From positions 1 through 64,000 of the IMG/VR virus record IMGVR_UViG_3300010885_052266: a stretch of 64,000 nucleotides of DNA; one strand, given 5' to 3'. Position 1 is the first letter of the stretch. The number at the start of each line of letters is the position of its first letter. Both the position numbers and the translations under genes were made by a program. Source of the stretch: a virus. The notes under the pieces were generated by a model. That model saw only the letters and a list, made by a program, of their open reading frames with translations, made no database searches and was not told where the DNA came from. Shown one piece after another: positions 2,196 to 35,044 of this stretch.

Positions 2196-2329
2196 GGCTC
2201 GTATCCTCCATTCTGGCCCTTCCGATCTTGCTGTCCGGCGACGCGAGATCGAAAACCACGAGGCGGCGGTGGGTGGCGCCGTGCTGGTCCAGGTAAGCAA
2301 GGACGCGTCGCTCTATCGGGCGAAGTGCT

Positions 2330-3478
2330 TCATGTTCCGCCATGCGACGCCGCGGCCGAGAGAGCGACCCACGCGATATGAGCCAACCGCTGTGGGCAGT
2401 CTTCATTCGGACAGTCCCTGGCGGGTTTGACCCCGTGATCACAGCCTGTCCCATACAGGCTCTCAGAGATTCCGAAGTATTCGTCCAGGCGAGCCAGGCC
2501 GGCGCGCAGGTCTGGCCGGTCCGCCTGGCGCTGAGGCTCAGCGCCGCATGTGCAGACGTCACCCAGATGCTCTCTGATCGCGCAGCCCGCGTGGTGATCG
2601 GGCACGCTCGCTGCCCTTACACCCTGAGGTGGCGAAGGCCTCTGTTGGAGCTGCGCGGCTGATGCTGCAGGCCCGAGAGCAGCCTTGAGAGTGTTGACAT
2701 CCTCCCGCGGGAAACGCTCAGGCCACAGCAGCTCGCCGGCCTCCTTGCGAGGATCCCGTATCCAGCGGTGCGGGTGGTCTGGCTCGAATTCCGCCGGCAG
2801 GCATAGATAGGTCCAGCCATTCGGCTCCTTCGCCATGACGTGCCCAATGAGATCGTCGTGGTGAGAGCGGGTCTGGACCACCACCATGGCGCCGTTCACC
2901 GGGTCAGCGAGGCGAGTGGTCATGACCTCGTCCCACCACTGCATCGCCTGGGTCCGCAGTTTGTCGGACCACACGTTGATGGGGTCGATCAAGGTGTCTC
3001 CGATCAGGAAGTCGCCCGCCTCTCCCGCGAGAGGGCTGCCAACCTCCACCGCTTTGAGAGAGCCTCCCTTGTCGTTCTTGTTCCCGAACGGGCCTGTAAG
3101 AGCGTGAGTATGACCCCAGCAAGCCCGGTATCCGTCGCTCTTCAGAAGCCTGCGGGCTGCCATCGCTGGAACGTAATCACGGTTGGAAGAGTAGGCCCGA
3201 ATGAACCGTCGCTCAGGATGCTTGATCCAGTCGTAGGCAGGCCACGCACCCCGGACCACGCTCGACAGGCCGTGCCGCGCCGGCACTGCAATCGCGAGAC
3301 GCTTGATGTGCCCGGCACTCACGCCGTCCAAGTGGTCGCAGATCGCGTCGATATGCCAAGGCGACAAATAAGATTCGAAAGCGCCAGCGACAAAAGGCCA
3401 GACGTGGGCGATGAACTCCTTCAATCCGTCTTTTGCGACGGTTGCCCGGACCTCCTCGATATACTCGTCCTCGGTCAT
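2330..3478 (-). CDS. Degenerate paralog of the terminase ATPase domain, no nuclease domain
   Basis: Shares WHIDAICDHL, GHIKRLAIAVP, WTYLCLPAEFEPDHPHRW and QLQQRPSP with 93..1787; Walker A is PARHGLS and Walker B is DFLIGDTL. Confidence 0.85.
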   Translation of the reverse strand: MTEDEYIEEVRATVAKDGLKEFIAHVWPFVAGAFESYLSPWHIDAICDHLDGVSAGHIKRLAIAVPARHGLSSVVRGAWPAYDWIKHPERRFIRAYSSNRDYVPAMAARRLLKSDGYRACWGHTHALTGPFGNKNDKGGSLKAVEVGSPLAGEAGDFLIGDTLIDPINVWSDKLRTQAMQWWDEVMTTRLADPVNGAMVVVQTRSHHDDLIGHVMAKEPNGWTYLCLPAEFEPDHPHRWIRDPRKEAGELLWPERFPREDVNTLKAALGPAASAAQLQQRPSPPQGVRAASVPDHHAGCAIREHLGDVCTCGAEPQRQADRPDLRAGLARLDEYFGISESLYGTGCDHGVKPARDCPNEDCPQRLAHIAWVALSAAASHGGT

Positions 3479-3569
3479 GCTCTCTTTCCCTTCATCTTGC
3501 GTTGGTGTCGTGCAGAGGAGTCAGCCCCTCCAGCAGTCCCGTCATGGCCAACGCGGCGTCATTCACGCC

Positions 3570-3989
3570 TTAGCGATAGACGTCGTCGATTGGCTTCATC
3601 CGATCCTTTGTGCCCGCCCTCGTCAGCATTGTTAAGCTGACCCGTAACGAGCCGACCAACGGTCTGCCCAGGACGTTTGGGGGAAAAACCTCGACCTGCG
3701 CCAATCCTTCATTGATGATTTTCTCAGTGAGGCGAGCCGTCGTTGCCGCCACTATCCTTGGTATGAGCGCCTCAGAACCGGCACGACTGGACTGCAACAA
3801 GGTCAGGTCGTACGTCGCCGTTTCCGCCATGACGACCGCTTCAAGCCGATTGCATTCCGGACACGGATACTGGCGCCGCGCGACCGTGAGGGAGGCCCTT
3901 GGGTCGTATGCCTTGGCGGTCACCCGTTCGCGGGGATACAGGAAGATAAAGCCCGTGCCACCGCAGATGTCGCAGTCGTCTCGTGCCAT
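3570..3989 (-). CDS. Hypothetical protein with CxxCGG...CPEC zinc-binding motif
   Basis: ATG at 3989; packed against neighbouring minus-strand ORFs. Confidence 0.55.
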   Translation of the reverse strand: MARDDCDICGGTGFIFLYPRERVTAKAYDPRASLTVARRQYPCPECNRLEAVVMAETATYDLTLLQSSRAGSEALIPRIVAATTARLTEKIINEGLAQVEVFPPNVLGRPLVGSLRVSLTMLTRAGTKDRMKPIDDVYR

Positions 3990-4210
3990 CACACCTTCAC
4001 TCCTGCCACGCGGACTTTTCCCGCATCGGTCAACACCACGTTCGCGAAGTCGCGCGTCTCGCCCCACACCAGGCGCACAACTCCCTCGCTCTGCCACACG
4101 GCGATTTGCCTCCACCACAGGCTGCCCGCCGGCACGGATCGCTCGGTCGCAAAGTAGGCGAGCGTCACAGGCTTTCGCTCCGCCAAGGATTGCGGCCTGC
4201 TCCGCCTCAT
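3989..4210 (-). CDS. Hypothetical protein
   Basis: ATG overlaps the DUF1643 stop (ATGA coupling). Confidence 0.45.
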   Translation of the reverse strand: MRRSRPQSLAERKPVTLAYFATERSVPAGSLWWRQIAVWQSEGVVRLVWGETRDFANVVLTDAGKVRVAGVKV

Positions 4211-4773
4211 GGCTGAAACGCCACGAACGGGGTGTCGTATCCGATCCTGCTGGAATGCTTGGGCCACCCCGACTTTGTCAGGCCCAGGCAGAGCAACGGG
4301 AATCCCCAGCGGCGCAGCTGGACGAACAGTTCGCGCGCATGCTGCTCCAGCACCGGCGGAACCTGACCTGTCGCCACAATGATCTTCGTAGCCTTGGCGG
4401 CGAAGCTGGCGATAAAGAAGGTGTTTTCGACGTGCTGAACCTCGTCCGCTGCCTCCAGGTCGCCGGGGTTGGTGGCGCGATACGTGCCGACGTTGACCTT
4501 CACATAACGCGTCAGGCCCAGCGTGGTCCTGGTCCAGGTGTATTCCTTGCGCACGGTCAGATCGTCCTCGGTCTCGCTCGCGGCGGATGGGTTCATGCCG
4601 ATCCACAGCGCGAAGGGGAGATCGTCGGGAAGGACCTCGCGATCGCTGTCCCAGACCCGTTCGAGCCACAGAAGATGCTCCTGGCGCTCGCCCGCAAAGC
4701 TGGCCGATCCCCGGACGCCGGGCAGCATGGGCCAAGGCCGCGCGCCGGCCTCGTGTGTCGTGGTTGCGCTCAT
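4207..4773 (-). CDS. DUF1643 family protein
   Basis: WIGMNPSAA..EDDLTVRK, VNV..YRATNP, CLGLTKSGWPKH motifs. Confidence 0.8.
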   Translation of the reverse strand: MSATTTHEAGARPWPMLPGVRGSASFAGERQEHLLWLERVWDSDREVLPDDLPFALWIGMNPSAASETEDDLTVRKEYTWTRTTLGLTRYVKVNVGTYRATNPGDLEAADEVQHVENTFFIASFAAKATKIIVATGQVPPVLEQHARELFVQLRRWGFPLLCLGLTKSGWPKHSSRIGYDTPFVAFQP

Positions 4774-14972: not shown

Positions 14973-15113
14973 GCGCCTCTCCTGCGGGTGACTCGCGACC
15001 TTACCAAAACTGGCAGAGCCTTGATTTTGCACAATTCAATACCATATATCAATGTGCATAAACATTTTAATGTTATATCCGCGCGCGGCGCAAGCCGTAA
15101 ATTGCCTCCCACA

Positions 15114-15169
15114 AGCCTTGCCTGCCCCATGGCAGGCGTGACCAGCCGCCACAACGCGGCTGAAAGGCT
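15114..15169 (+). ncRNA. Hammerhead-like three-way junction (type III topology) covering the RBS of ORF 15175
   Basis: AGCCT-T-[GCCTGCC ccat GGCAGGC]-GTGACC-[AGCCGC cacaac GCGGCT]-GAA-AGGCT. Confidence 0.55.
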
Positions 15170-15174
15170 CTGAA

Positions 15175-15489
15175 ATGAACTTACCGCTCCATACCGTGCC
15201 GTCTCTGGGCACAATCGCGGCCCGCTCCCTGGCCACCAACGTGCCGCTTGCGGCAGCGGTGGCGCTGTGCGCGGCCGCTATCCTGATCGTGACCCAATGG
15301 ACACCATCCTGGGTCCGCTCGCGGCTCTTCCTGCGCTCGCTCACGGCGAGCCATGTCCCCGCGACGCTCCTGAACGAGTATCTCGAAACGGCCGACCCGA
15401 TCGCTCGGGCCAGGCGGGACATCCTCTCGCCCGATCTTGACCCCGAGATCGTGGCTGAGCTGCGCAAGGCTCTTGCCGCCGCAGCATGA
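15175..15489 (+). CDS. Hypothetical protein with N-terminal hydrophobic segment
   Basis: ORF directly after the junction motif. Confidence 0.55.
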   Translation: MNLPLHTVPSLGTIAARSLATNVPLAAAVALCAAAILIVTQWTPSWVRSRLFLRSLTASHVPATLLNEYLETADPIARARRDILSPDLDPEIVAELRKALAAAA

Positions 15490-15526
15490 CAGACCGGCCC
15501 GTGGCTCAGCGCCACGGGCCGCGCTG

Positions 15527-15586
15527 CTTCCTACCCCGCCACCGGCGGGGCTGATGCGCTGCTCAGTTGAAGCGGCCGAAAGGAAG
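15527..15586 (+). ncRNA. Hammerhead-like three-way junction (type III topology) covering the RBS of ORF 15590
   Basis: CTTCCT-A-[CCCCGCC acc GGCGGGG]-CTGATGC-[GCTGCT cagttga AGCGGC]-C-GAA-AGGAAG. Confidence 0.6.
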
Positions 15587-15589
15587 ACA

Positions 15590-16336
15590 ATGACCACCCC
15601 ACAGCGCACAATCGTGCGCGCCAACAAACTGATGGCCATCGAGCCATTCCAGTCATCCGAGGAGACTCGATACTATCTCAACTGCGTTCATATCGAACCG
15701 CACGCCGAAGGCGCGATCCTGGTTGCCACCGACGGTCACACCCTGGCCGCCATACTCGACCGGGACGCCCATGTGGCCGGCCTACCCGCGATCTGGGATC
15801 ACCAGATCAAGGGCCGGGTCGGAAAGCGCCTCTCGGCTTGGGCCAAGGCGAATCCGGAGCGCACCATCTGGTGCGATATGCAGCTCAGGCACCCGAACGG
15901 GAACCCTGACATGCTGTCCATCGTCGCGGCCGATAACCCCCAGCAGATACTGCTGGGCAACGGCCAGACGTTGCTGCAGCTGCCCGAGCGCCTCTGGATT
16001 GACGGGACGTTCCCCGAATGGCGGCGAACCGTGAAGCCGATGCCCCCCGAAACGCGCACCAAAGCGCCGAACATCTCGGGGTCTTATATGAAACGCTGTG
16101 TCGACTTCTTCGTGGCTATGACTAGCGAACGGGACGTGCCCATCACGCTGCACCAGACAAACCCTACCGGCCCTTTCCAGGCCGGCCCTGTCCGGGTCAC
16201 ATCCCCAGGGGTCCATGACGTGTTTGTCCTGGTCATGCCGATGGGCAGTGCCCCTCCGACGGAAGCAGAATTCCACCCCTACTGGCTGGAGCTGCCCGGA
16301 GACGCGCAAACCGAAGAGGTGGCACGAGTCGCCTGA
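15590..16336 (+). CDS. DNA polymerase III beta-clamp-like protein (partial, about two domains)
   Basis: RYYLNCVHIE, LVATDGHTLA, IDGTFPEWRR, VLVMPM. Confidence 0.75.
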   Translation: MTTPQRTIVRANKLMAIEPFQSSEETRYYLNCVHIEPHAEGAILVATDGHTLAAILDRDAHVAGLPAIWDHQIKGRVGKRLSAWAKANPERTIWCDMQLRHPNGNPDMLSIVAADNPQQILLGNGQTLLQLPERLWIDGTFPEWRRTVKPMPPETRTKAPNISGSYMKRCVDFFVAMTSERDVPITLHQTNPTGPFQAGPVRVTSPGVHDVFVLVMPMGSAPPTEAEFHPYWLELPGDAQTEEVARVA

Positions 16337-16346: not shown

Positions 16347-16448
16347 TGAAACCCGCTCCGGCGGGTCGCCCCATAAGGGCTTGATAATACAGAAAACACC
16401 CCCATATCTATTAGGCATACCGGACCGAATAGCCGGTCCTGGCGAACC
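16347..16448 (+). repeat. About 102 bp direct repeat (copy at 17229..17330) starting with a GAAA double-hairpin motif
   Basis: Near-identical sequence at offset 882. Confidence 0.9.
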
Positions 16449-16449
16449 T

Positions 16450-16783
16450 GCTCGGATTACACATCACAACGACTACCGAGCCCGTCGCGCCGCAAGGCGA
16501 CGTTCTGCCTTCCGATCCCAGTATTGGACCCGATCGATGAGGCGCAGAATAGCGCGCTTGTCCCATAGGACTGGGAGATGACCAGCGGTGCGAGACGTGC
16601 CTAGCTGATATCCAACCACGAAAGCCGAGAGTGGCCCATCCATTGGTGTCCGAACCCTCGGCACTGCGGACCCAGTTCCGCACTGACAAAAACCCCCACT
16701 GAAAGGAGAAATCCTCCAATTCAGAAACCCGCCGGTCCTCCCCTCGCGGCGGGTTCCACAGGCGCAATCCCTGTGGCTGATGA
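16450..16783 (+). ncRNA. Candidate structured ncRNA, copy 1
   Basis: No convincing ORF; hairpins covary with 17635..18057; contains GAAA motifs at 16620 and 16724, the latter ending in CTGATGA. Confidence 0.55.
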
Positions 16784-16841
16784 ACATATCTGCGCGTGCG
16801 CCCGTCACGAGAACACCGGGCCGAAACAGAGGATGAAATCC

Positions 16842-17231
16842 ATGAACATCTCCATCCCCGAGCAAGCTGCGAAACCCGCCAAGGCGCCAAAGCCGACGCG
16901 GGTTGCGAAACCCACCAAGCTGCCGCAGCCGACTCTGTCATCTAAGCCCGTCCCGGCGCGTGCGCCGTCGTTGCCGCAGGACCCACCGCCGGGCGAATGG
17001 CCGGCGGGCACCGAGGCGACGATCCGCCGCACATGGGCGCAGCTGAAGCAGATCGGCGAGGCCTGCGGCGTGGTAATGAGGGACTTGTATGACATCGACC
17101 GGCTGAACAAGCGGCGGGCGGAGTTGAAAATGCCGCCGGTCTACGCTCGATTGGCCAAGCTGTCTGCGTCATACGGTGCTTTCGCGTCTCAACCCAACCG
17201 CCTTGATCTTCAAGAGTTGGAACTCGACTGA
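16842..17231 (+). CDS. Chimeric ORF: start of ORF 18116 fused to a copy of the C-terminus of 8523..9404
   Basis: 16722..16862 matches 17996..18136; 16862..17172 is an inverted copy of about 8524..8830. Confidence 0.6.
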   Translation: MNISIPEQAAKPAKAPKPTRVAKPTKLPQPTLSSKPVPARAPSLPQDPPPGEWPAGTEATIRRTWAQLKQIGEACGVVMRDLYDIDRLNKRRAELKMPPVYARLAKLSASYGAFASQPNRLDLQELELD

Positions 17232-17477
17232 AACCCGCTCCGGCGGGTCACCCAATAAGGGCTTGATAATACAGAAAACACCCCCATATTTATTAGGCAT
17301 ACCGGACCGAATAGCCGGTCCTGGCGAACCCCCGATGGGGGCTTGAAGCCAGCACCGTTCAAGAGTCCGGTCGGCGCGGCGATCATCGCCGATCCCGATT
17401 TTCCCTATCACCTTTGCGTCCCAAGGCAGGCCGAGTTTCTGCCGGCGCACACGGGACGGCCCGGGTCACGCGCCAAT

Positions 17478-17634: not shown

Positions 17635-18057
17635 ACTCGGATTACACACGACCAAGACTACCGAGTCAGTCGCACCAAAAGGCTGCGCCATTCTCCCCTT
17701 CCGATCTCCAATCATTGGAACCGATCGCCGAGGCCGGCAGAATGAGCGCGGACCCCGTAGGGACGGGACGAGTCGATAGTGCGAGACGTGCCTAGCTGAT
17801 ATCCAAAGCCGAAAGTCGAGAGTGGCCCATCTACCGGTGTCCGAACCCTCGGCTCTGCGGACCCCCGTTCCGCATTGAAGCAACCTCCAAAGCCGAAAGT
17901 CGAGAGTGGCCCATCTACCGGTGTCCGAACCCTCGGCTCTGCGGACCCCCGTTCCGCATTGAAGCAACCTCCAACTATGAAAGGTTCTTGCAATCCAGAA
18001 ACCCGCCGGTCCTCCCATCGCGGCGGGTTCCACAGGCGCAATCCCTGTGGCTGATGA
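17635..18057 (+). ncRNA. Candidate structured ncRNA, copy 2, with an internal 84 bp tandem duplication
   Basis: Homologous to 16450..16783; 17802..17974 is 2 x 84 bp; GAAA motifs at 17811, 17895 and 17998. Confidence 0.55.
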
Positions 18058-18508: not shown

Positions 18509-18593
18509 CCCGGGGTAGCTCAGCGGTAGAGCGAGGGGTCCGCCTTCACGGCGTGCGACGTCAGGGTCGCCGGTTCGATTCCGGCCCCCGGTC
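18509..18593 (+). tRNA. tRNA-like element with canonical D, T and acceptor arms but an aberrant anticodon arm
   Basis: TAGCTCAGCGGTAGAGC D-arm, GCCGG TTCGATT CCGGC T-arm, CCGGGG/CCCCGG acceptor; 36 nt between D and T arms; no encoded CCA. Confidence 0.6.
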
Positions 18594-18770
18594 CGACGCA
18601 GCCACCTCCGCTTTCTCAGCCTGCAAGCTTCGTTCGATCAGACGGCGGATCGCTTCGGCACGGGATGGGAATTGGGGTTGCTCTCGGCGCCAGTCATCAA
18701 TCCGACGTAGGAACTCCTCCGTCGCCCGCATCTGGAAAATCTTATCATGGGTCAATGCCATGGGGTTCAT
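18561..18770 (-). CDS. Ribbon-helix-helix (Arc/CopG-like) regulator
   Basis: FQMRATEEFLRRIDDWRR...PSRAEAIRRLIERSL. Confidence 0.75.
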   Translation of the reverse strand: MNPMALTHDKIFQMRATEEFLRRIDDWRREQPQFPSRAEAIRRLIERSLQAEKAEVAASDRGPESNRRP

Positions 18771-25176: not shown

Positions 25177-25306
25177 GCAACGCGGCACAGCCGCGAAACC
25201 CCGAGCAACGGGGTTGCCTGCATGTCGCAGGCATGAGGACATACTATGAGACACACCAAAGCACGAGACGCGCCTACCCGCTATCTTCGCGCAAGCGGAG
25301 ACCGCC

Positions 25307-25450
25307 GTGTTGACCTTCATCCTTGAGGCGATTGGTGTCGTGGTCGGAGCATATCTGCTTCTGACCGTCGTGCAATTTGTCGTCTATGGGTTCTTGTCAC
25401 TTTCCGTAGCGATAATAACATGGATAGTCGTCAGGAAACTGTTCTTCTGA
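25307..25450 (+). CDS. 47 aa hydrophobic peptide
   Basis: GGAG RBS + GTG; stop TGA overlaps the next GAAA motif. Confidence 0.45.
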   Translation: MLTFILEAIGVVVGAYLLLTVVQFVVYGFLSLSVAIITWIVVRKLFF

Positions 25451-25496
25451 AACCCGCTCCGGCGGGTCCCCGGCATTTCGCCGGGATGAGGAAACC

Positions 25497-25742
25497 ATGA
25501 TCCGAACCCGACTTTTTCGGTATGGCATTATCCGGGTCGAGGATAAGCATCTCGATCAGGACAAAGCGAACCGCCGCATCGACGCCCTGATCAACGAAGT
25601 TCACAAGGGCGTCCACGGAACCGGCGAGTTCCATATCCATGCCGATCATGTCAACGAACACGGCCTGTTCACTGGTCTGTTCTACGAGACGCCGACGTTC
25701 TTCCATCCTTGCAAGGAGACGAAGCTATGGAAACCCGCGTGA
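25497..25742 (+). CDS. Array gene, hypothetical
   Basis: Motif-derived RBS; stop lies in the loop of the next motif. Confidence 0.7.
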   Translation: MIRTRLFRYGIIRVEDKHLDQDKANRRIDALINEVHKGVHGTGEFHIHADHVNEHGLFTGLFYETPTFFHPCKETKLWKPA

Positions 25743-25783
25743 GCGGGTCGCCCCGCAATGACGCGGGCCTGAAAGACATCGCC

Positions 25784-25990
25784 ATGACATTGATCAGCCG
25801 CGATCCATTTGCCCGGCAGGAGCTACACCGCGTCTTGGTCGAAACCACGAAGGGTTGCGACTGGTGCGGCGGTAAGCGCCGGTCCGGCAAAAAGCTGTTC
25901 CAATACCAGACCGAGACAGATGGCGGCAGGACAAACCCCCACAAGGGCCTGTTCTGCGACAAGGACTGCCACGACTCCTACCACGGATAG
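25784..25990 (+). CDS. Array gene, zinc-finger-like (CDWC...FCDKDC)
   Basis: ATG after motif 25730. Confidence 0.7.
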   Translation: MTLISRDPFARQELHRVLVETTKGCDWCGGKRRSGKKLFQYQTETDGGRTNPHKGLFCDKDCHDSYHG

Positions 25991-26053
25991 GCAGTCCGCC
26001 ATGAAACCCGCTCCGGCGGGTCGCCCGCATCCCGCGGGCCAGAGGACCCCGAA

Positions 26054-26617
26054 ATGCAGTCCAACCTGCCCTTCTGCGACGATCCGTACGAGAGTGCGGA
26101 CGACGCCACGCTGCCCATGCCGACCCTGTGTCGTCCCGAGGATGGCCTGACCCCTGCCCCACCCCCCGGGTGGTTCAACGTCCTGTCCTACCTGAAGGAG
26201 GCGCAAACCCTGGATGTCGGCTGCTGGATCTGCGCCCTGCAAACTGTGCAGGAAGAGGAATACCAGCACGGCAAGAAACTGCACCGAGTGGCCCGCGACG
26301 GCGAAGGTAATCGCTACCTCGTGGTCCACCCCGACCTCGCCGAAGCGTGCTGCGACATGATCGAGTCTTTCAACTCGGCATTGATGCACTGCAACTGCGG
26401 CGGGTCTGATTGCCTGGCCGGACCGGAACAGTTCCGAGCCGCCCAGGTATTCGCGACACGCCGCTGGGCCGGCCTGACACTTTCGCAACGGATCGAAATT
26501 CTCGGCTCCTACGAGGAAGGTGATGACGACAGCATCGCAATTGCGATGCAGGGTCCAGCCATCGTATCTACGTTCGGAAACACCATGCTTTTGATGGAGG
26601 TCGCTGGACGTATCTGA
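26054..26617 (+). CDS. Array gene, hypothetical acidic protein
   Basis: Bounded by motifs. Confidence 0.7.
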   Translation: MQSNLPFCDDPYESADDATLPMPTLCRPEDGLTPAPPPGWFNVLSYLKEAQTLDVGCWICALQTVQEEEYQHGKKLHRVARDGEGNRYLVVHPDLAEACCDMIESFNSALMHCNCGGSDCLAGPEQFRAAQVFATRRWAGLTLSQRIEILGSYEEGDDDSIAIAMQGPAIVSTFGNTMLLMEVAGRI

Positions 26618-26666
26618 AACCCGCTCCGGCGGGTTGCCTGTATCCCACAGGCCAGAGGACAACAAA

Positions 26667-27137
26667 ATGATCCTTACATTCAACCGCGCCGGCGTTGAGA
26701 AAATGCTGGCTCACACGCTTGAAGCAAAAGAGCACAACCGAACTTTCGACACAACCGGCAAGCCCAAGCCCAGCCTATGGCTTGTGGGGGATCAGGGCAT
26801 TTACCTGATGTCCAACGGCAAGCCCGGCCTGAGCGCGGAGGACCCGGAGAGCCCCGAACGACAGTTCATCGTCTACGCCAACGAATGCAATCCGGATCGG
26901 ATGGCATTCGACGACTGGTGGGACATAAAACAGCGTTCGTTTGGAGGAGACGATGGCGTCGAAACAATTGACGCAACTTCGTTCCAAAAAGTTCTTCGAG
27001 AGGCGACCGGACCGCTCCGAATGTCGGTAACTGCGAGCATGATAGCGCTCGCGATCCCCAAGCCCGGCCCAGCGAAAGCGAGCAAGCTTTCGGGCAAGAC
27101 CCCTTCCCGGGGATCTGCCAAGCTGGCCCCGGCCTGA
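26667..27137 (+). CDS. DUF3085 family protein
   Basis: LWLVGDQGIYLMSNG, VYANECNP, WWD...FGGDDGVE. Confidence 0.75.
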   Translation: MILTFNRAGVEKMLAHTLEAKEHNRTFDTTGKPKPSLWLVGDQGIYLMSNGKPGLSAEDPESPERQFIVYANECNPDRMAFDDWWDIKQRSFGGDDGVETIDATSFQKVLREATGPLRMSVTASMIALAIPKPGPAKASKLSGKTPSRGSAKLAPA

Positions 27138-27194
27138 ACCTGAAACCCGCTCCGGCGGGTTGCCTGGCAATCCCGCCGGGCGTGAGAAACCACA

Positions 27195-27665
27195 ATGTCA
27201 AAGCACGGTTTTGACCCGCTCTGCCGGTCAGGCTTCGACATCGACGCGAACGAAGATGAGAGCCATTTCTACGAGGAATGGCTTGTCGTCTATTCGGCCG
27301 ACTTCGGCTCGATCCGGGAAGAATGCAACGCACACGCCTTGGTCAAAAGCCTGAACGACAAGGAAACGTATAGTTCCTGCATATACTACACGGACTGCGG
27401 TTCCTTCGTCGTTCTGGTTGACCCGGAGTGTGATACAGCCATCAAGACGGCTCAACTGCTTGTTGAGTTCATCGCGGCTGGCAACGATCTCGACCCCGCT
27501 AAATATCTCAAATCGTTGGACGAGGCGTGCCGGGACGACTGGTTCGAAGCCGACTTCTCCGAACGGGTCGATCTGCTGATGCTGGCCGATGGCGACATCG
27601 GCTTGGTGGTCAAATCTGACCCGCCCGACGTCGTAATGCCGTTCCTGCAAGAGCGACACGAGTGA
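27195..27665 (+). CDS. Array gene, very acidic hypothetical protein
   Basis: Bounded by motifs. Confidence 0.7.
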   Translation: MSKHGFDPLCRSGFDIDANEDESHFYEEWLVVYSADFGSIREECNAHALVKSLNDKETYSSCIYYTDCGSFVVLVDPECDTAIKTAQLLVEFIAAGNDLDPAKYLKSLDEACRDDWFEADFSERVDLLMLADGDIGLVVKSDPPDVVMPFLQERHE

Positions 27666-27716
27666 AACCCCCAAGGGGGTCACCTGCAATTCCGCAGGTC
27701 TGAAACAGAGGCCTCA

Positions 27717-27956
27717 ATGGCAACCGAATACCACGCCCTCTGGGAGGAAAGCGGAGACAACTGCCTGGACGATCGAAAGGTCGGCCAACTGCTGCGGCGC
27801 TGCGATCTGCCGAGCGCCTTCGCCTTCCTCCGGCTCATCGCGGGTCGAACGAAAGTCGCCCCGCTCTGCCTGATCCTGGACGACGGCAAAACGGCACTCA
27901 TCAAAGTGATCCCGGAAGCCGACTACAAGAAAGGCATGACATATCAGTCTATCTGA
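27717..27956 (+). CDS. Array gene, hypothetical
   Basis: Bounded by motifs. Confidence 0.65.
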   Translation: MATEYHALWEESGDNCLDDRKVGQLLRRCDLPSAFAFLRLIAGRTKVAPLCLILDDGKTALIKVIPEADYKKGMTYQSI

Positions 27957-28016
27957 AACCCGCTCCGGCGGGTCGCCCGCACCACGCGGGCCTGAATGAA
28001 AGGAACCATCCAATCG

Positions 28017-28388
28017 ATGCAAATCGAAATCGTGAACCGCTGCCCTCACGGCGTCACACTGATCGACTCCGAGGGCCGCCCCCGCACCTATGAGCAGGTC
28101 GGGCCAGCGGTTCGTATCGAGACCGAGGCCGGACCCGCTGTGGGTGTGGCTTCAGGCGTGCCGATCCATGCGCCGTCCCGGATCACCGGCATCACCAACC
28201 TGCCTCCCAAGCGGGACGGGACCGTGATTGTGGTGTCCAAGATCGCTGCCATGGAAATTGCCCGGCAGCTCCCGGAGCGAGACGACGTGGTCTACCCCGG
28301 ATCAGCACCAGACGAGAAAGCGGTGCGCTCTGGGGATGCGCGCCGTCGTGTGCTGGGCGTGACACGCTTGGTCCGCGCGACTGAATGA
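28017..28388 (+). CDS. Array gene, conserved-looking phage protein
   Basis: IVNRCPH...NLPP..GTVIVVS...DDVVYP pattern. Confidence 0.65.
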   Translation: MQIEIVNRCPHGVTLIDSEGRPRTYEQVGPAVRIETEAGPAVGVASGVPIHAPSRITGITNLPPKRDGTVIVVSKIAAMEIARQLPERDDVVYPGSAPDEKAVRSGDARRRVLGVTRLVRATE

Positions 28389-28439
28389 AACCCGGCTGGT
28401 CCGGGTCGCTGGCATTACGCCGGCATGAGGACCACGCAC

Positions 28440-28712
28440 ATGCGAGAAATTATCTATCGACCCGTCGCGGGGGTGAAATGCCCGGACGGGAAGACCCGAA
28501 CCGTTCGGGCCAGATCCACGATCTACAGCAAGGGCCTGCATCCCGACACCGCCTTCTCCGTGCCTGCCTATGTGCAGGTCTCGGGCAAGACGGTGTCGGG
28601 CTTCATCGCCCCGGCCGATGGTCTTGCGTTCCAGCAGGAACATGGCCCCGAGCTGGAGTTCACCCCCTTCTCGGGGCGCCGCAACCACGACGTGTTCGAG
28701 AAACCCGGTTGA
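28440..28712 (+). CDS. Array gene, hypothetical
   Basis: PDTAFSVPA.V.V.GKTVSGFI; stop in the motif loop. Confidence 0.7.
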   Translation: MREIIYRPVAGVKCPDGKTRTVRARSTIYSKGLHPDTAFSVPAYVQVSGKTVSGFIAPADGLAFQQEHGPELEFTPFSGRRNHDVFEKPG

Positions 28713-28753
28713 TCCGGGTTGCCCGCAATCCCGCGCGGCATGAGTAAATCAAA

Positions 28754-29587
28754 ATGAAACAGAAAGCACCGACCAATCATCAAAAGGCAATCGCCGACGA
28801 GATGAGAAAGGTCAGCGGTCGGCATACCATCTATCAGGTCTTCAACGACTTCGTGGAGATGGCAGCCTTAGCCTTGCGCAACACCTGCGACTTTGCCAAT
28901 CGAGACGCCAGAGAGCGACGCTACCTGGATATCGAAGGCAAATACGAGCGCAAGGACGTGAAAGCCTTCCGAAGAATGATGGGAGAGCTGATCGCGGCTA
29001 TGGAGGCGGGCCCCGAGGATGTCCTCGGGGCCGTGTTCCACGACCTGGAACTGGGCAACAAATACACAGGCCAGTTCTTCACGCCCTACCACGTGTCCTA
29101 CATGATGGCCAAGATGACCATGCACGACCTGAAGGGCCATCCAGCCTTGCAGGAGCCGGGCGGGTTCATCACCGCGGCCGAACCGGCCTGCGGTGCTGGC
29201 GGCATGATTGTCGCCATGGCCCATGCCTGCATGGACGAGGCGGTGAACTTCCAGGAACAGCTGCACGTCATGGCGGTCGATGTCGATCCGCGCTGCGTGC
29301 ACATGTCCTACGTCCAGGCCGCCCTGCTCGGCATTCCGGCGATCATCCACCTGGGGAACTCCCTGACGCTGGATATCCGGGAAGCTTGGCCGACACCGGC
29401 CCACATCACGGGCCTGTGGGCGTACCGCCTCCACCGACGCGGCATCGATGAGGCTGACGCCACCTGGTGGCGTCAGCACACCTTGGCCCAGCGGGCATCC
29501 ATGCTCGCTGAGCACGATGTCGACCTGGGCCAGATCGATGCGCCCCGGCCTCCCAGGGTAATCCTGGAGAGCCGGCAAGCGACATAA
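28754..29587 (+). CDS. N-6 DNA methylase-like protein (short form, no NPPY/F visible)
   Basis: GQFFTPYHVS, EPACGAGGM, VDVD..CVHM, GNSL. Confidence 0.8.
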   Translation: MKQKAPTNHQKAIADEMRKVSGRHTIYQVFNDFVEMAALALRNTCDFANRDARERRYLDIEGKYERKDVKAFRRMMGELIAAMEAGPEDVLGAVFHDLELGNKYTGQFFTPYHVSYMMAKMTMHDLKGHPALQEPGGFITAAEPACGAGGMIVAMAHACMDEAVNFQEQLHVMAVDVDPRCVHMSYVQAALLGIPAIIHLGNSLTLDIREAWPTPAHITGLWAYRLHRRGIDEADATWWRQHTLAQRASMLAEHDVDLGQIDAPRPPRVILESRQAT

Positions 29588-29652
29588 GCCGCCTGACTCC
29601 TGAAACCCGGTTCGCCGGGTAGCTGGCATGACGCCAGCCTTAGGAAATCACA

Positions 29653-30339
29653 ATGAACACAGCAAACGAGACGCGCGCCCTCGTCGAGCAGGTCAAGGCC
29701 GAGGTATTGGCCGCCCTGCCGATAATCGCCATTGGCGACAAGGTCACGCGCTTGATGGAAATGGCCTTCCCCGACTTCAATGAAATGGGAAGGCGCCTGA
29801 TGCCCAACCTTGGCACGATCACCAACGACGTCCTTGCCAAGCACGGTCTGTCCAAGCTGCCGGTCGACACGATGCGCTACCTGAACGGGGCGATTATCGT
29901 GCACAGCCGTGATGAGGTCGACAAGAGCCACCACGTCGCCGTTCAATTCCGCGACCAGATCATGGAAGAGCGGCTCGACATCGCGCTGGGCCTGTCCCCC
30001 TTAACCGTGGGGCCGGCCGAGCTGATGGCCGTCATGCACGAAGCGACGTTCGAAGCTCCCTTGGAGCCTGCCCTTTCCGAACTCTACATGTGGGCCGCGC
30101 GGGCCGCGATCGAACACAAGTCCGGTCAGGTCTACCCCTACGCCAAGGAAAGCAGCGGCGGACCCCGGCGGCTTACCGAGGACGATGTGCTGAACAAGCA
30201 CCCCTGGTGCGACGAATACCGGCAAATCGCCGGCTCGATCCGCAACAAGGTGGTGGCCGAGGCCAAGAGCCGCGAACGGTCCGGGAAACCGGCCCAGACG
30301 GCACCACAAGCCGCGACGGACCTGTTCGCCACGGCTTGA
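29653..30339 (+). CDS. Array gene, hypothetical
   Basis: Motif-derived RBS. Confidence 0.7.
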   Translation: MNTANETRALVEQVKAEVLAALPIIAIGDKVTRLMEMAFPDFNEMGRRLMPNLGTITNDVLAKHGLSKLPVDTMRYLNGAIIVHSRDEVDKSHHVAVQFRDQIMEERLDIALGLSPLTVGPAELMAVMHEATFEAPLEPALSELYMWAARAAIEHKSGQVYPYAKESSGGPRRLTEDDVLNKHPWCDEYRQIAGSIRNKVVAEAKSRERSGKPAQTAPQAATDLFATA

Positions 30340-30437
30340 CGCATTCGATGTGAATCACCACATTATAGTGTGTAGCCACGAAACCCGGCCAGCCCGGGTT
30401 GCTCGCAATCCAGCGGGCCTGAAAACTGGAAACCATC

Positions 30438-30794
30438 ATGCAAGGCATGAAGCTGACAGCCCTGGCTTACCACCGCAACGGCGTGGCGGGCGAGGGATTC
30501 TGGGCCGTCGCGTTCACTTGGCGCAGCGGCCTCCGAAAGCCGATCAACATGGTCGCCACCGTGTTCGAAAGCAACGAACACGACGCAGCCGAGGTCCACC
30601 CCTGCACCGGCCACCTGGCAGTGCTGGATGCGACCCTCGCAGCTCTCGGCTTGGTAAAAGCCAGATGGCGCGGCGACGACTTCGAGCCGCAACTGCGGCA
30701 GTGGATCGCACAGCACCATGCGGCACAGGCGGCCAAGCAGGCGGCCAAGCAGGCGGACAAGCTGGCGAAGGCCGAGAATGACGTCGCCGCCTGA
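30438..30794 (+). CDS. Array gene, hypothetical
   Basis: YHRNGVAGEGF...WRGDDFE. Confidence 0.7.
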   Translation: MQGMKLTALAYHRNGVAGEGFWAVAFTWRSGLRKPINMVATVFESNEHDAAEVHPCTGHLAVLDATLAALGLVKARWRGDDFEPQLRQWIAQHHAAQAAKQAAKQADKLAKAENDVAA

Positions 30795-30852
30795 CTACCG
30801 AAACCCGCCCTGGCGGGTCTGCGGGCATCCCGCCCGCAATGAGGAAATTACA

Positions 30853-31572
30853 ATGAGTTTGTTCGACCAGTTCGCCGCAACCCTGCGGCGAAAGACGGAA
30901 TTCTCAGAGGCGTCATGGGAGATCGGCGGCAAGCTTGAATTGCTGCTGTTCGATGACGCGATCTCCGAAGCCAAAAGGCGTTTTCCAAAACGTCGGATCG
31001 GCACGGGACGCGATGGGTGGATAAAGGCCCAGAACGTCCTGCCCCCGGAGGTCTACGCCGCCATCAAGGCACCACTCGAATTAAGGTTCGAGAAGTGGCG
31101 GGAGGACCGGCAGCAAAAACTGGATGAGTTTGACGCCCTGTTGAAGATCCTGGCCGGTCCAGCCGAAATCCCCAAGACCGAGGAGCCTTTCTGTGCCCGG
31201 ACCATATCGGGGACAGATTTCGGCAGCCAGGGCTCCGGCGCCAACAAATACGCGAGCGGTATGGCGGAATCCATCGCCGATGACGCGCGCTTCGTTGGCC
31301 TGTCAGCTGAGGTCAAATCCCGGGTGTATCTCACTACAACGGGGAGCTGGCCGCAGACGTACATGTCCTACGACGTGTTCGTGAACACGACCCCCGACGG
31401 TTGGGCCGCTGCCATGATGAAGCCCCGCATAGAGATGCGGGAGGTCATCCGGCTTTGCTGGAAGCGGGGCGTAAACCCCCGCGTCTACTACCCGTTTCTC
31501 CCGTACGACTATGAGGAAAAGCAGGGCATCGGCCATTTCGGAGATGATCTCAACGAACGCGCCGCAGCCTGA
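30853..31572 (+). CDS. Array gene, hypothetical
   Basis: Bounded by motifs. Confidence 0.7.
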   Translation: MSLFDQFAATLRRKTEFSEASWEIGGKLELLLFDDAISEAKRRFPKRRIGTGRDGWIKAQNVLPPEVYAAIKAPLELRFEKWREDRQQKLDEFDALLKILAGPAEIPKTEEPFCARTISGTDFGSQGSGANKYASGMAESIADDARFVGLSAEVKSRVYLTTTGSWPQTYMSYDVFVNTTPDGWAAAMMKPRIEMREVIRLCWKRGVNPRVYYPFLPYDYEEKQGIGHFGDDLNERAAA

Positions 31573-31628
31573 ACCCGAAACCCGGTTGATCCGGGTCCCT
31601 GGACTCCTTCCAGGATGAGGAAATCAAC

Positions 31629-31982
31629 ATGATGAAAACGACTGCCAGCGCACGCGGGAAGGCGGCACCACCGCCGGAAGACGCCCCGATCGTGACGCGA
31701 GACGACCTTACGCTCCTGGGCATGATGAACCTGCGAGTCATGTGCTTTCGGCCCGAAACCGTCGGCAACGTCGGTGTCCCGAGGGACATAATCGGCCTGG
31801 ACGGCAATACTGCCATCCTTTGGCGGTCCGCGAGCGAGTCCCGCTACGAATTTGACGGTTGGGCCCCCTGGCACGACGGGATGAACGGCGGGCACAGAAA
31901 GACGCTCGCCTCAGCCCTCCACTGGGTCCAGCGCGCGAGAGATATCCGGGCCGGCTCGGCCACGGACTTCCGCGGCTGCTGA
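31629..31982 (+). CDS. Array gene, hypothetical
   Basis: Bounded by motifs. Confidence 0.65.
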   Translation: MMKTTASARGKAAPPPEDAPIVTRDDLTLLGMMNLRVMCFRPETVGNVGVPRDIIGLDGNTAILWRSASESRYEFDGWAPWHDGMNGGHRKTLASALHWVQRARDIRAGSATDFRGC

Positions 31983-32037
31983 CCGCACTGAAACCCGCCC
32001 AGCGGGTCGGCCCATCCCGGGCCATGAGGAAATCAAC

Positions 32038-32322
32038 ATGAGCAAACCAAACCCTGATCCGTTCGCCATCGGCCTGGACATCGACGATTTGTTGATCGGC
32101 TATCGCGCGGTGCACGAACTGGTTAATGCTGCGAACGTCATGGCCAACCGGCTTGGCACGCGCAGCCCCTTTGTGCGCCTGCTGCAAGCCACCGCCGAGA
32201 TGCTCGACGAGGTCCTGCAGCCGGAATCGACGCATGAGCAAGTCAAGCACATCCGGGACCGCCTCCAAGGCGAACGCGCCGCTCTGACCGCTATCTACGG
32301 TCCACTCAGCGAGGCGCGATGA
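32038..32322 (+). CDS. Array gene, hypothetical
   Basis: Motif-derived RBS. Confidence 0.65.
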   Translation: MSKPNPDPFAIGLDIDDLLIGYRAVHELVNAANVMANRLGTRSPFVRLLQATAEMLDEVLQPESTHEQVKHIRDRLQGERAALTAIYGPLSEAR

Positions 32323-32582
32323 TCATGAATCGTCGCCCCCCGATCTGCGAGCTGGTCGGTCGCAACGTGCGGCAGGCGCGGGTGAGTCGCTCAATGTCGC
32401 TGACTAGTCTGTCGGCCGCCTCCCGAATCTCCCGGTCCTACATCATCAGCCTGGAGCATGGACGCCGAAACCCCAGCCTGTTCATTCTTGACAACTTGGC
32501 CAAAGCCCTAGGGGTCGAGACGCGCGATCTGCTCGCGCCTGAGAAACCCGGTTTATCCGGGTCGCCGCCTTCTGCGGCATGA
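32319..32582 (+). CDS. XRE-family HTH regulator
   Basis: VGRNVRQAR...SRSYIISLEHGRRNPSL..L.NLAKALGV; reads through motif 32543. Confidence 0.85.
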   Translation: MIMNRRPPICELVGRNVRQARVSRSMSLTSLSAASRISRSYIISLEHGRRNPSLFILDNLAKALGVETRDLLAPEKPGLSGSPPSAA

Positions 32583-32592
32583 GGAAATCAAC

Positions 32593-33147
32593 ATGCTCTC
32601 AACACGAGAACCCCCCGTGCGACCCGCGACCCTCGCGGAGGAATTCGCACTTGAGATGAAGTTCCGCCCTACCCACGTCATCACCGAGTCCGGCATCGAG
32701 CCAATCACGGCGGTGCCCGTCGCTCCCGACCCAGTGCAGATCGCGCTGATGGAGGAGCCGGACGTGCTGGTGACGGGGGCGATGTGGTCGGCGGCCGGCA
32801 TGGCCGGACAGATCGACATCCTGGCCGCGGTCGGCCTGCCCGCCGACCTGGTCGGAGCCGGAGACGTCTTGGATGTGTTTACCGAGCAGACCAGACTTTG
32901 GCTGCGCGGCTGGCAGATGCAGGTCAACACCGGCTCTTGCTGGGGCACCAGTGGCAGCATCGGCCGCCAGGCCAACGATCTGATCCAGGCAGGCTACCTG
33001 CTTTGGTCCAACGACCCGGTCAAAGACTGGGCCGGCTATGACCTGCCGACCCGGACCAGCGTGATGTCCGGCACTCCGGGCAGCGCGGCGTACGTCAATC
33101 TGATGAACGGCCCGCGCTACCTGACGTGGATATCGGTCATCCGGTGA
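32593..33147 (+). CDS. Array gene, hypothetical
   Basis: WQ..VNTG.CW...GSIGR.A..LI..G pattern. Confidence 0.7.
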   Translation: MLSTREPPVRPATLAEEFALEMKFRPTHVITESGIEPITAVPVAPDPVQIALMEEPDVLVTGAMWSAAGMAGQIDILAAVGLPADLVGAGDVLDVFTEQTRLWLRGWQMQVNTGSCWGTSGSIGRQANDLIQAGYLLWSNDPVKDWAGYDLPTRTSVMSGTPGSAAYVNLMNGPRYLTWISVIR

Positions 33148-33201
33148 CCCACGAAACCCGCTCCGGCGGGTCGCCCGTATCCCACGGGCATGAGGACTGA
33201 A

Positions 33202-33477
33202 ATGACAATCAGATCAATCACCATGGACGAGCTTCTCGCGAAGTTCGATCATTGCACGCGCCCGGCTATCCAGATGCTGCCGAGGAAGCAACCCACGGCG
33301 ACCCACATCGCCCTGTTCGAGAACCTCCAGGCGGACAGCAGCGCGCTCGGCGCACGCACAGCCGTGCTGGTCGGACCGGACAACACCTTCAAAACCCTGG
33401 AGGAGATCGACGGTCGGCACCTGGGCGACCTGCCCAGCCAGCGCCAATACGCCGTCGCCGCAGTGGCTCTGACATAG
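33202..33477 (+). CDS. Array gene, hypothetical
   Basis: Bounded by motifs. Confidence 0.65.
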   Translation: MTIRSITMDELLAKFDHCTRPAIQMLPRKQPTATHIALFENLQADSSALGARTAVLVGPDNTFKTLEEIDGRHLGDLPSQRQYAVAAVALT

Positions 33478-33530
33478 CCACGAAACCCGCCCCGGCGGGT
33501 CGGCCCATAACGGGCTATGAGGAAATCACC

Positions 33531-33938
33531 ATGACATCGAGAGTTTTGATCAACGAGGCGTCACAAGCCTCCACACTCGACCCGGCGTTCACCCTTGAAG
33601 GGAGGAGCGTCGGCGACATCCTCAAGGATGTGAACGCGGCCATGCAAGCGGCCGGGATCGAGGCGGAGGAGTATGACTTCAGCGACATGACCAGATACCT
33701 CGACGCCGCAAATCGGGGGTGGCCCACCATACCAGCATGGGTCGCCTGCTTTCCCGTCTGCGGTACCAACGAGGGGTTTTACGTCCACATTGAGCTGATC
33801 TTCCGGCAGGAGATCCCCAATCTCCAACGCCGTCTGATCGGACTGGCGAAGTGCTACACCTGGGAGAACGCCCTGCAGATGGCCGCCTTTGCCGCGACCA
33901 TCTTCGAGGGAAAAGACTCCTGGAGGTATCGGACATAG
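33531..33938 (+). CDS. Array gene, hypothetical
   Basis: GTNEGFYVHI; bounded by motifs. Confidence 0.7.
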   Translation: MTSRVLINEASQASTLDPAFTLEGRSVGDILKDVNAAMQAAGIEAEEYDFSDMTRYLDAANRGWPTIPAWVACFPVCGTNEGFYVHIELIFRQEIPNLQRRLIGLAKCYTWENALQMAAFAATIFEGKDSWRYRT

Positions 33939-33996
33939 ATCCCGAAACCCGCTCCGGCGGGTCCGCAGGCATACCGCCTGCACTGAGGAAATCACC

Positions 33997-34359
33997 ATGA
34001 TCCCGAAACCCATCTTTCGAACCCCCAACCGGTTCGAGAACGCACTCATGATTCAATCGGGCGCCTGCAACGGCGCTGCGATCGCCGGCTCGCTGCATCA
34101 GGCGTACCGGGAGGCGCGGGAAGAATACCGCGACACCGACCGGACGAACCGAGACCCTGCGGTGCAGATGATCCTGCACCAACTGTGCCACCTGGGCCGC
34201 ATCTCGACGGACGACTACTCCCATCCGAGTGGTTTCCGCTACGATCGGGCCTACCGCGAGTGCGTGGATCGCTGCCAGTCCTACAGGACGCTGGTCCTGC
34301 TCGGCGAAGCCGACCGGGCTTGCATCTTTGTGTGCGACTCACCACATTACGATGTGTGA
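33997..34359 (+). CDS. Array gene, hypothetical
   Basis: Bounded by identical motifs. Confidence 0.7.
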   Translation: MIPKPIFRTPNRFENALMIQSGACNGAAIAGSLHQAYREAREEYRDTDRTNRDPAVQMILHQLCHLGRISTDDYSHPSGFRYDRAYRECVDRCQSYRTLVLLGEADRACIFVCDSPHYDV

Positions 34360-34412
34360 GAAACCCGCTCCGGCGGGTCCGCAGGCATACCGCCTGCACT
34401 GAGGAAATCACC

Positions 34413-34832
34413 ATGAACCATCGAATCGTTATCACCGACCCGCTCAGGGTGCGGGCCATGATCCAGTATGCTCGCCAGCACCGCTGCGAGGAAAAGCTCG
34501 GCATGGCGCTGATCCGCCTCCTGGAGGTGGCAACCATCGGTATGATGAAGCCCTACGCCGGCAGCGACGCTGACAACCCGAAATTCAAGCTGGAGCCGAC
34601 CGACGTTCCGATCACGGCTGTGATCGGCGCTGACCATGCTCCCATGTCGCTCGGTTTCGCGCTGTTCCGTGGCGCTGACACGCCCCAGGTTCCGTTCGGA
34701 AAATACGACGTCACCTGGGCCGGCGGCTTCATCTACGAAGGTCCGCGCCAGCCTCTCAACGGCTCGGCACCGGCGCTGACGGTCAACATCGGCGGCGACT
34801 CCAGCCAGCATAGCTGGTCGGTGCACACGTGA
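34413..34832 (+). CDS. Array gene, hypothetical
   Basis: D.AP.S.GF, GGFIY.G, WSVHT pattern. Confidence 0.7.
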   Translation: MNHRIVITDPLRVRAMIQYARQHRCEEKLGMALIRLLEVATIGMMKPYAGSDADNPKFKLEPTDVPITAVIGADHAPMSLGFALFRGADTPQVPFGKYDVTWAGGFIYEGPRQPLNGSAPALTVNIGGDSSQHSWSVHT

Positions 34833-35044
34833 TGCCGACCTGCCTCTCTGCGGCCGAGCAGGCTCTCCAGCTGAAAGAGGCCGGTGAGCGCCTCGTGCTT
34901 GCGTTGAGAGCGCAACGCGCCGCTTACAACGCGTGGCAAGCCGCCCCGGCTGGACCAGGCTGGGTCCCAGCTCTGGAAGCCTACGACGCGGCCAACAAAG
35001 GCGTCGATGACGCCCAACTCGCCGTGGACGCGCTCCACGTCTGA
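34829..35044 (+). CDS. Array gene, hypothetical (coupled, no motif upstream)
   Basis: GTGA overlap. Confidence 0.55.
   Translation: MMPTCLSAAEQALQLKEAGERLVLALRAQRAAYNAWQAAPAGPGWVPALEAYDAANKGVDDAQLAVDALHV

Follow-up and report, generated by a model that had tools for sequence, protein, structure and literature searches.

Two paralogous, probably hammerhead-derived leaders with predicted Shine-Dalgarno occlusion at the head of the early gene block of a lake phage

The window analyzed here comprises the first 64 kb (64,000 nucleotides) of a viral record of 100,879 bp with direct terminal repeats, and near-identical DNA is present in freshwater and lake metagenomes from several studies. Two elements, hereafter El1 and El2, lead the rightward early block of this uncultured lake phage. 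To the left of El1 lie an ORF of 113 aa, transcribed divergently, and an MT-A70 DNA methylase; El1 itself leads the first gene on the right-hand side of the divergent intergenic region. The rightward gene order is a small membrane-type protein of 104 aa with a hydrophobic segment (15175-15489, + strand), a two-domain sliding-clamp-like protein of 248 aa (15590-16336, + strand), non-coding repeats, a tRNA-Arg gene and an anti-repressor. Between ORF 15175-15489 and El2, directly behind the stop codon, a G+C-rich inverted repeat forms a 10-bp hairpin (15495-15521, + strand). The ATG at 15175 is the conserved start of the 104-aa protein, whose homologues begin at the same methionine (homologues P0091-P0093 are 83-94% identical), and M1 at 15590 is common to clamp-like homologues of 243-248 aa (P0002-P0005 are 74-88% identical). 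Since homologues back both start codons, El1 and El2 are non-coding leaders.

El1 (15114-15169, + strand, as are all of its parts) is a three-way junction whose segments follow the order of a type III hammerhead. The 5′ strand of helix III, an anti-Shine-Dalgarno AGCCU (15114-15118), pairs with positions 15165-15169, with pair probabilities of 0.83-0.99 in three sequence contexts. It is followed by a junction U at the hammerhead H17 position (15119), after which cleavage would occur, by hairpin I of 7 bp with a CCAU loop in the minimum-energy fold (15120-15137), and by the core strand GUGACCA (15138-15144; consensus CUGANGA), which has G at position 3 and C at position 8. Hairpin II (15145-15160) is predicted to fold with a GCCGC/GCGGC stem and a CACAAC loop, and an extra U (15161), with A15144 as its predicted partner, separates it from the last segment (15162-15169), in which GAAA (15162-15165) runs into the 3′ strand of helix III, AGGCU (15165-15169). 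The last segment is the Shine-Dalgarno (SD) region GAAAGGCU of ORF 15175-15489, and El1 ends 5 nt before the ATG at 15175. The three-way junction is the minimum-energy fold of El1 (z = -5.2), and the SD purines 15165-15169 have an unpaired probability of 0.00-0.10.

El2 (15527-15586, likewise + strand throughout) has the same order of parts. Its helix III 5′ strand CUUCCU (15527-15532), an anti-Shine-Dalgarno mimic, pairs with 15581-15586 with probabilities of 0.92-0.997 in the native context. Then come a junction A at the H17 position (15533), hairpin I of 7 predicted bp with an ACC loop (15534-15550), the core strand CUGAUGC (15551-15557), in which position 9 is C and the consensus is A, and hairpin II (15558-15576), predicted as GCUGC/GCGGC with one U-G pair that favours the + strand as the RNA strand. 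An extra C (15577) precedes the last segment (15578-15586), where GAAA (15578-15581) and the helix III 3′ strand AGGAAG (15581-15586) form the SD region GAAAGGAAG of the clamp-like gene 15590-16336; 3 nt separate El2 from the ATG at 15590. With its true ends, El2 folds with z = -3.0; together with the native hairpin 15495-15521, the z value is -4.8, and with this hairpin added, the three-way junction becomes the minimum-energy fold. The El2 SD purines 15581-15586 have an unpaired probability of 0.00-0.08, and the junction is predicted to be open. A two-state switch, with a competing fold of El2 that leaves the SD free, was considered and rejected, being an artefact of cutting the sequence at 15520 that is gone when the native hairpin is present. 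The original prediction had placed three stems ahead of ORFs 15175 and 15590, with the SD as the 3′ strand of stem III, and had remarked on the additional base before GAAA in both copies and on the C at position 9 of El2. All of its letters and coordinates proved correct, the junction folds are predicted, and the predicted occlusion of the SD purines bears out the role of stem III.

The genome was searched on both strands with a relaxed type III descriptor consisting of helix III of at least 4 bp, U, a non-G base and a hairpin, followed by NUGA plus 2-4 bases, a second hairpin, 0-1 base and GAAA. El1 and El2 were the sole matches in 100,879 bp. A hundred dinucleotide-shuffled genomes yielded a mean of 0.12 matches, with two or more in one genome of the 100. 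When 1.5 Mb of other phage DNA was scanned, the descriptor retrieved 10 sites, six of which are textbook type III hammerheads located directly before an SD and ATG. Since the descriptor matches are this rare in shuffled DNA, and since both elements are coding-strand features with 3-5 nt separating them from a start codon, we consider El1 and El2 to be non-chance elements. The contrary view, that they are chance hairpins in G+C-rich intergenic DNA and have no RNA function, can draw on the reverse strand of El1, which also folds well (z = -3.7), and on how common predicted SD occlusion is in this genome. In a survey of 180 candidate starts El1 ranked 33rd, the survey being crude and noisy with spurious ORFs and truncated contexts, and predicted SD occlusion is by itself unexceptional in the G+C-rich genome of this phage. 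Against two observed matches with 0.12 expected, and against the comparison of the two copies that follows, we find the chance view very improbable indeed.

El1 and El2 are collinear, with no gap in the alignment from hairpin I through GAAAGG except in loop II, and the 3′ strand of helix II together with the letters downstream of it is almost identical in the two (GCGGCUGAAAGG vs GCGGCCGAAAGG). GAAAGG doubles as the SD, which is a caveat on counts of hammerhead-like letters. Read from the sequence, 12 of the 17 corresponding base pairs are identical, four differ on both sides in a compensatory manner, one differs on one side (C-G vs U-G) and none is broken. The two-sided differences are G-C/C-G and U-A/C-G in helix I and G-C/U-A and A-U/U-A in helix III. 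That paired positions differ compensatorily is hard to reconcile with chance hairpins, and such paired differences between two paralogues are, at the level of sequence, fair evidence that the helices matter. MAFFT aligned El1 and El2 out of structural register with canonical hammerheads, and likewise the 5′ halves of El1 and El2 with each other. Both elements are real and structured, and the two are related.

Four lake and freshwater studies supplied contigs, ca. 93% identical to the region, that were aligned to it. In El1, a C is inserted after 15124 and A15129 is changed to G, both in or at loop I, and A15153C lies in loop II; G15158A, found in one run, breaks the pair C15147-G15158, and U15169A breaks the outermost pair of helix III. 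The El1 core, the extra U and GAAA are invariant in the four relatives. The changes concentrate in loops (3 of 10 loop bases vs 2 of 46 stem or core bases, p = 0.035), which also speaks against chance, in a fragile manner, as p is 0.21 when the C insertion is counted as a stem change. Compensatory changes were absent among these ca. 93%-identical relatives (of the five changes, three are in loops and each of the other two disrupts a single pair), and the relatives therefore neither prove nor disprove the fold. Run X4 carries a major variant of El2 without 15554-15556 (A6-U7-G8), 15560 and 15562 that keeps CUG and CAG. If this variant is an orthologue, the hammerhead core would be dispensable there; it may instead be a paralogue, and the gap placement is ambiguous. 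The contigs of three runs end at 15505-15554, which thus marks a mosaic junction.

In their native context, both elements match type III hammerheads in the order of the helices, the cleavage site, the core and GAAA. Hammerhead features kept in El1 and El2 are U4 G5 A6, G12 A13 A14, the A15.1-U16.1 pair and a non-G base at position 17, and they are kept in both diverged copies as well as in the four relatives. The letters of the A15.1-U16.1 pair and the H17 base that follows are U15118-A15165 and U15119 in El1, and U15532-A15581 and A15533 in El2; the El1 base U15119 is predicted to pair with A15164. Judged from the sequence, these hammerhead-like letters are too many for coincidence.

Under one alternative reading, El1 and El2 would be variant type III hammerheads that still work, perhaps slowly or conditionally, and expose the SD by cleaving. 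A cut after U15119 or A15533 would detach an anti-SD strand of 5-6 nt, which would fall off; translation would be irreversibly on, and the message would be divided into gene-length units. Besides the hammerhead order and letters, this reading has in its favour a Watson-Crick combination at positions 3 and 8 in both elements (C-G in El2 and G-C in El1). Swapped 3-8 pairs are active, as the original prediction had stated, and occur naturally; cleavage also persists in variant cores, among them some with insertions in the GAAA strand (Perreault et al. 2011, PMC3088659). The hairpin 15495-15521 would shield the 3′ end of the upstream cleavage product, and the slot occupied is that of true hammerheads in other phages: canonical type III hammerheads stand directly before SD and ATG in the phage loci L176, L178, L232 and L243, and a canonical type II hammerhead with SD stands directly before the homologous clamp-like gene in the distant phages L101 (ATG 2483) and L149 (ATG 2474), so that El2 occupies a slot filled by true hammerheads elsewhere.

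The family model of hammerheads fails on both elements. RF00008 gave no match at E ≤ 10 when 506 nt (the most lenient search), 3.3 kb or the whole genome was used as the query. Rfam is not blind to phage hammerheads, since canonical type III copies in L178 and L243 score 34.9, 36.5 and 51.8 bits against the same model, and the shortfall of El1 and El2 relative to ordinary phage copies therefore exceeds 20 bits. The phage carries more than 30 hammerhead-like elements, and no element of this genome reaches the Rfam gathering score with the type II or type III model, which likewise weighs against active ribozymes. The poor fit to RF00008 is explained by the letters themselves. The consensus core C3 U4 G5 A6 N7 G8 A9 is matched neither by El1 (GUGACCA, with positions 3 and 8 swapped and able to pair) nor by El2 (CUGAUGC, with C9). 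G12 A13 A14 does not directly follow the G10.1-C11.1 pair, as U15161 or C15577 is inserted beside G12, and insertion-free registers of hairpin II and GAAA cost 3.4-7 kcal/mol. Both elements also have an inverted 15.2-16.2 pair, and in place of C at position 17 they have U (El1) and A (El2).

These deviations count against efficient catalysis. G12 is the general base of the hammerhead (PMC2553840). Natural hammerhead cores fit the consensus almost without exception, and the rare changes that are tolerated comprise exchange of the 3-8 pair for U3-A8, A6C, bases inserted in GAAA or after A6, and a helix II whose first pair is U-U (Perreault et al. 2011, PMC3088659). The combination found in the cores of El1 and El2 is, as far as the letters go, absent from those rarities. 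Changes at A9 cost a hammerhead one to two orders of magnitude in activity; a search of the literature for data on A9 mutants yielded nothing usable.

Folding of El1 points in the same direction. Additional pairs are predicted that zip the junction, namely C15143-G15162 (position 8 with G12, P = 0.99), A15144-U15161 (P = 1.0) and U15119-A15164 (position 17 with A14, P = 0.75), and because of them the El1 junction is predicted to be closed, unlike the open junction of a hammerhead, with G12 and U17 both in Watson-Crick pairs. The zipped fold is at -33.6 kcal/mol vs -27.5 to -28.9 kcal/mol for an open hammerhead-like junction, a gap of ca. 5-6 kcal/mol; in the same comparison canonical phage hammerheads, whose 7/3/1 junction stays open, are at -18 to -25 kcal/mol, all of these values being from nearest-neighbour folding, which leaves tertiary contacts aside. 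The predicted folds thus allow two views of C8 in El1: it may pair with G3, as the original prediction had it, or with G12 in a structure that has drifted from catalysis.

On this evidence, the reading that we prefer, and hold with about even confidence, is that El1 and El2 are paralogous hammerhead-derived leaders that occlude the SD and are catalytically weak or dead. The two elements would descend from type III hammerhead ribozymes and would have retained the three-helix shape and most of the core letters, with a changed core. Helix III would consist of the ribosome-binding site on one strand and its complement on the other. In the RNA as transcribed, a helix III of 5-6 bp would hold the SD and close a very stable junction, and it is from this arrangement that limited translation initiation would follow; the message would also gain a structured 5′ region. 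Self-cleavage would most likely be weak or lost, especially in El1, where the zipping pairs tie up G12 and the cleavage-site base. Several core deviations, the zipped El1 junction and the much greater stability suggest that the fold has been retained for its shape. In short, we infer hammerhead ancestry, an effect on translation and a loss or weakening of catalysis.

There are arguments against the loss of catalysis. The G3/C8 double change of El1 is the product expected of selection for an intact hammerhead core. A leader as stable as the predicted one would need some means of SD release, and a cut after position 17 would provide it. The core letters are kept, variant-core hammerheads with insertions cleave, and the El2 junction is predicted to be open. 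Of the original assignment to variant type III hammerheads, the topology, the core letters and the buried SD stand, while the RF00008 result, the core deviations and the zipped El1 junction tell against it. Active ribozymes seem to us somewhat unlikely but retain a sizeable share of our confidence, because the cleavage-release logic is sound, as in the engineered SD-sequestering ribozyme switches that work in bacteria (PMC5052635). A natural ribozyme-gated ribosome-binding site, in which working hammerhead variants hold the SD in helix III and cleavage sheds the anti-SD strand, is a rather unlikely outcome by our estimate; if true, it would be a natural counterpart of these engineered switches and would widen the core sequence space of hammerheads.

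The core strand of both elements is also complementary to loop II. In El1, G15138-U15139-G15140 can pair with C15150-A15151-C15152 at the start of the loop, and in El2, CUGA (15551-15554) can pair with UCAG (15563-15566), the first four bases of the loop. The register is the same in both elements, and the linkers of 2-3 nt, 0 nt and 3-5 nt suit an H-type pseudoknot. This raises the possibility of a separate leader family that resembles hammerheads, i.e., a pseudoknotted three-way junction that is read or cut by a protein or nuclease. Position 3 (G vs C) covaries with the loop base (C15152 vs G15566), and the CUG and CAG kept in the major X4 variant in spite of the loss of 15554-15556 would be in line with such pairing, with the reservation that the variant may be a paralogue with ambiguous gaps. 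Loop shuffling gave p = 0.009 for El2 in the anchored register, a suggestive, post hoc value; the El1 pairing is of 3 bp and non-significant (p = 0.15 anchored and 0.5 in any register). A generic descriptor of a three-way junction with a pseudoknot was unspecific, with nine matches in the genome.

The covariation of core positions 3 and 8, to which the original prediction had appealed, has to be seen in the light of the same pairing. Its letters are correct, including TTGATA at 16381 and 17263, both of whose starts were verified in the sequence; its weight is less, since it comes from three sequences only and pairing between the core and loop II could also explain it.

Searches for further elements of the El1/El2 design by pattern scans of IMG/VR and GTDB genomes found none. 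The helix II/GAAAGG pattern had 28 matches in IMG/VR and 92 in GTDB, all of them coding-sequence coincidences lacking hairpin I or helix III. Searches for related loci retrieved no relative, whether IMG/VR was queried with either single protein or GTDB genomes and IMG/VR with an alignment of the 104-aa protein, and blastn of 15085-15600 against GenBank phages returned chance matches only. The coincidence of UGA, GAAA, the A-U pair and the non-G base is hard to explain without hammerhead ancestry. We regard a separate pseudoknotted family as quite improbable.

El1 and El2, both closed, had also been put forward as independent support for reading the array of this phage, which is open and type II-like, as hammerheads. 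They add little to that reading, speaking for hammerhead ancestry in the lineage and not for catalysis. Many IMG/VR phages, including L176, L186, L192, L199, L207 and L243, have canonical type II hammerheads whose stem III is identical to the stem III 20-mer of the array, GAAACCCGCUCCGGCGGGUC. Phage operons that combine type II and type III hammerheads are normal; L178, for example, carries five hammerheads in the order III-II-II-II-III within 2.1 kb. Clusters of hammerheads flanking phage genes were described in 2011 (Perreault et al., PMC3088659).

Intergenic hammerheads of phages have been known since 2011, and El1 and El2 tie the hammerhead fold physically to a ribosome-binding site. Should they cut, they would constitute a natural translation switch activated by cleavage, with a core that tolerates changes thought to be harmful; should they not cut, a ribozyme fold would have been re-used as a plain structural throttle after the loss of catalysis, and this outcome would help to interpret the 30-odd hammerhead-like elements of the phage. 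We conclude that El1 and El2 are probably hammerhead-derived translation throttles whose self-cutting is putative.

Compared with the phage type III hammerheads described by RF00008, El1 and El2 share the helix order, U4 G5 A6, G12-A14, the letters of the A15.1-U16.1 pair and of the non-G base at 17, and similar helix lengths, and, like the type III hammerheads of L176, L178, L232 and L243, they occupy the leader position of an early gene, next to its SD and start codon. They differ in the G3/C8 of El1, the C9 of El2, the extra base between helix II and G12, and the 15.2-16.2 pair, which is G-C instead of C-G. The SD of El1 and El2 lies inside helix III, whereas that of the ordinary phage copies lies just after it. 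In addition, unlike in canonical phage hammerheads, the junction of El1 is predicted to be closed by extra Watson-Crick pairs and to be 9-15 kcal/mol more stable.

A second point of comparison is HHphage of haloviruses HF1/HF2, which has atypical core insertions and whose cleavage was measured; it is located 13 nt upstream of the start codon of the leading gene on an early polycistronic transcript, whose mapped 5′ end is near the cleavage site (Perreault et al. 2011, PMC3088659). El1 is likewise an element with an altered core that leads the first gene of an early block. The insertions of HHphage, however, are at 2a/2b, beside helix I, and it belongs to an archaeal virus living at very high Mg2+ and salt. 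No SD sequestration has been described for it, and cleavage of El1 and El2 is, unlike that of HHphage, only a candidate activity.

No report of a natural hammerhead or hammerhead derivative that holds the SD in a helix of its own was found in the literature searched. The closest counterparts are engineered. Hammerhead and twister switches have been built that lock the SD in a helix of the ribozyme, from which cleavage frees it (Wieland and Hartig 2008, as cited in PMC5052635), and in SD-sequestering twister constructs translation went up 5- to 100-fold (Felletti et al. 2016, PMC5052635). The engineered switches are synthetic and use fast ribozymes with consensus cores, whereas in El1 and El2 the core is altered and catalysis is putative; what they share is an SD locked, for El1 and El2 by prediction, in a ribozyme or ribozyme-like helix.

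Contigs of close relatives (~93% identical) from three independent metagenomes end or start within 15495-15554, at 15525/15554 in run X3, 15501/15524 in X4 and 15505/15526 in X7. These breaks hint that a recombination or mosaic boundary separates the module of the 104-aa gene (15175-15489) from that of the clamp-like gene (15590-16336). Upstream of El1, the hammerhead-shaped leader (15114-15169) that precedes the 104-aa gene, lies a divergent, A+T-rich intergenic region (15000-15090) containing two TATATC boxes. The box at 15074-15079 has a TGT upstream, which gives it the look of an extended -10 element, and would start a rightward transcript ca. 25-30 nt before El1. The only promoter-like site that a consensus scan reported points leftward.

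The 248-aa product of the clamp-like gene (15590-16336) is related to the beta sliding clamp of DNA polymerase III, in a shortened form with two domains. It matches PF02767 and phrog_947 weakly, and its homologues carry the name DnaN. PHROGs assigns the protein to phrog_3007, labelled "RusA-like Holliday junction resolvase", and for this protein the label looks wrong.

Downstream of this gene, a pair of 102-bp repeats that are 97% identical was found at 16347-16448 and 17229-17330, each having at its start a type II-like element with UUGAUA. Because X3 and X7 carry replaced DNA between the copies (344 different letters, joining 16372 to 17221), the repeats flank an exchangeable cassette. An 84-nt unit is present as an exact tandem duplication at 17802-17969 and as a third copy, 75% identical, at 16611-16694; the layout of each copy is GAAAG, a long hairpin, UC, a hairpin and UUGAAG. 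An 86-nt tRNA-Arg gene with anticodon CCG is located at 18509-18594 and scores 37.4 bits with the Rfam tRNA model, in a printout that leaves undisplayed 30 bases opposite 17 model positions.

Farther along, a hammerhead-like array of ~27 copies extends over 25195-39632. Its unit consists of GAAAC, a hairpin, GU(C/U/A) and a second hairpin, followed by AUGAGGA, CAGAGGA, CUGAAAN or a similar strand, AUGAGGA being the strand in 17 of the copies. Positions 3, 4 and 8 of this core strand differ from copy to copy, and no helix II was consistent across the array. UCC(C), complementary to the GGA of the downstream Shine-Dalgarno sequence, is frequent in loop I, as judged by eye. The top score of the array with the Rfam model RF02276 was 21.8 bits, short of that model's gathering score, which is 37. 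In another IMG/VR phage, L178, five hammerheads (in the order III, II, II, II, III) lie within 2.1 kb at 2300-4400; just one of the five scores high enough for the Rfam gathering cutoff, the rest scoring 35-36.5 bits, and the type III copy at 4296-4352 has an additional U between A9 and helix II. Stem III of the array is identical in every letter to that of canonical type II hammerheads of other phages.
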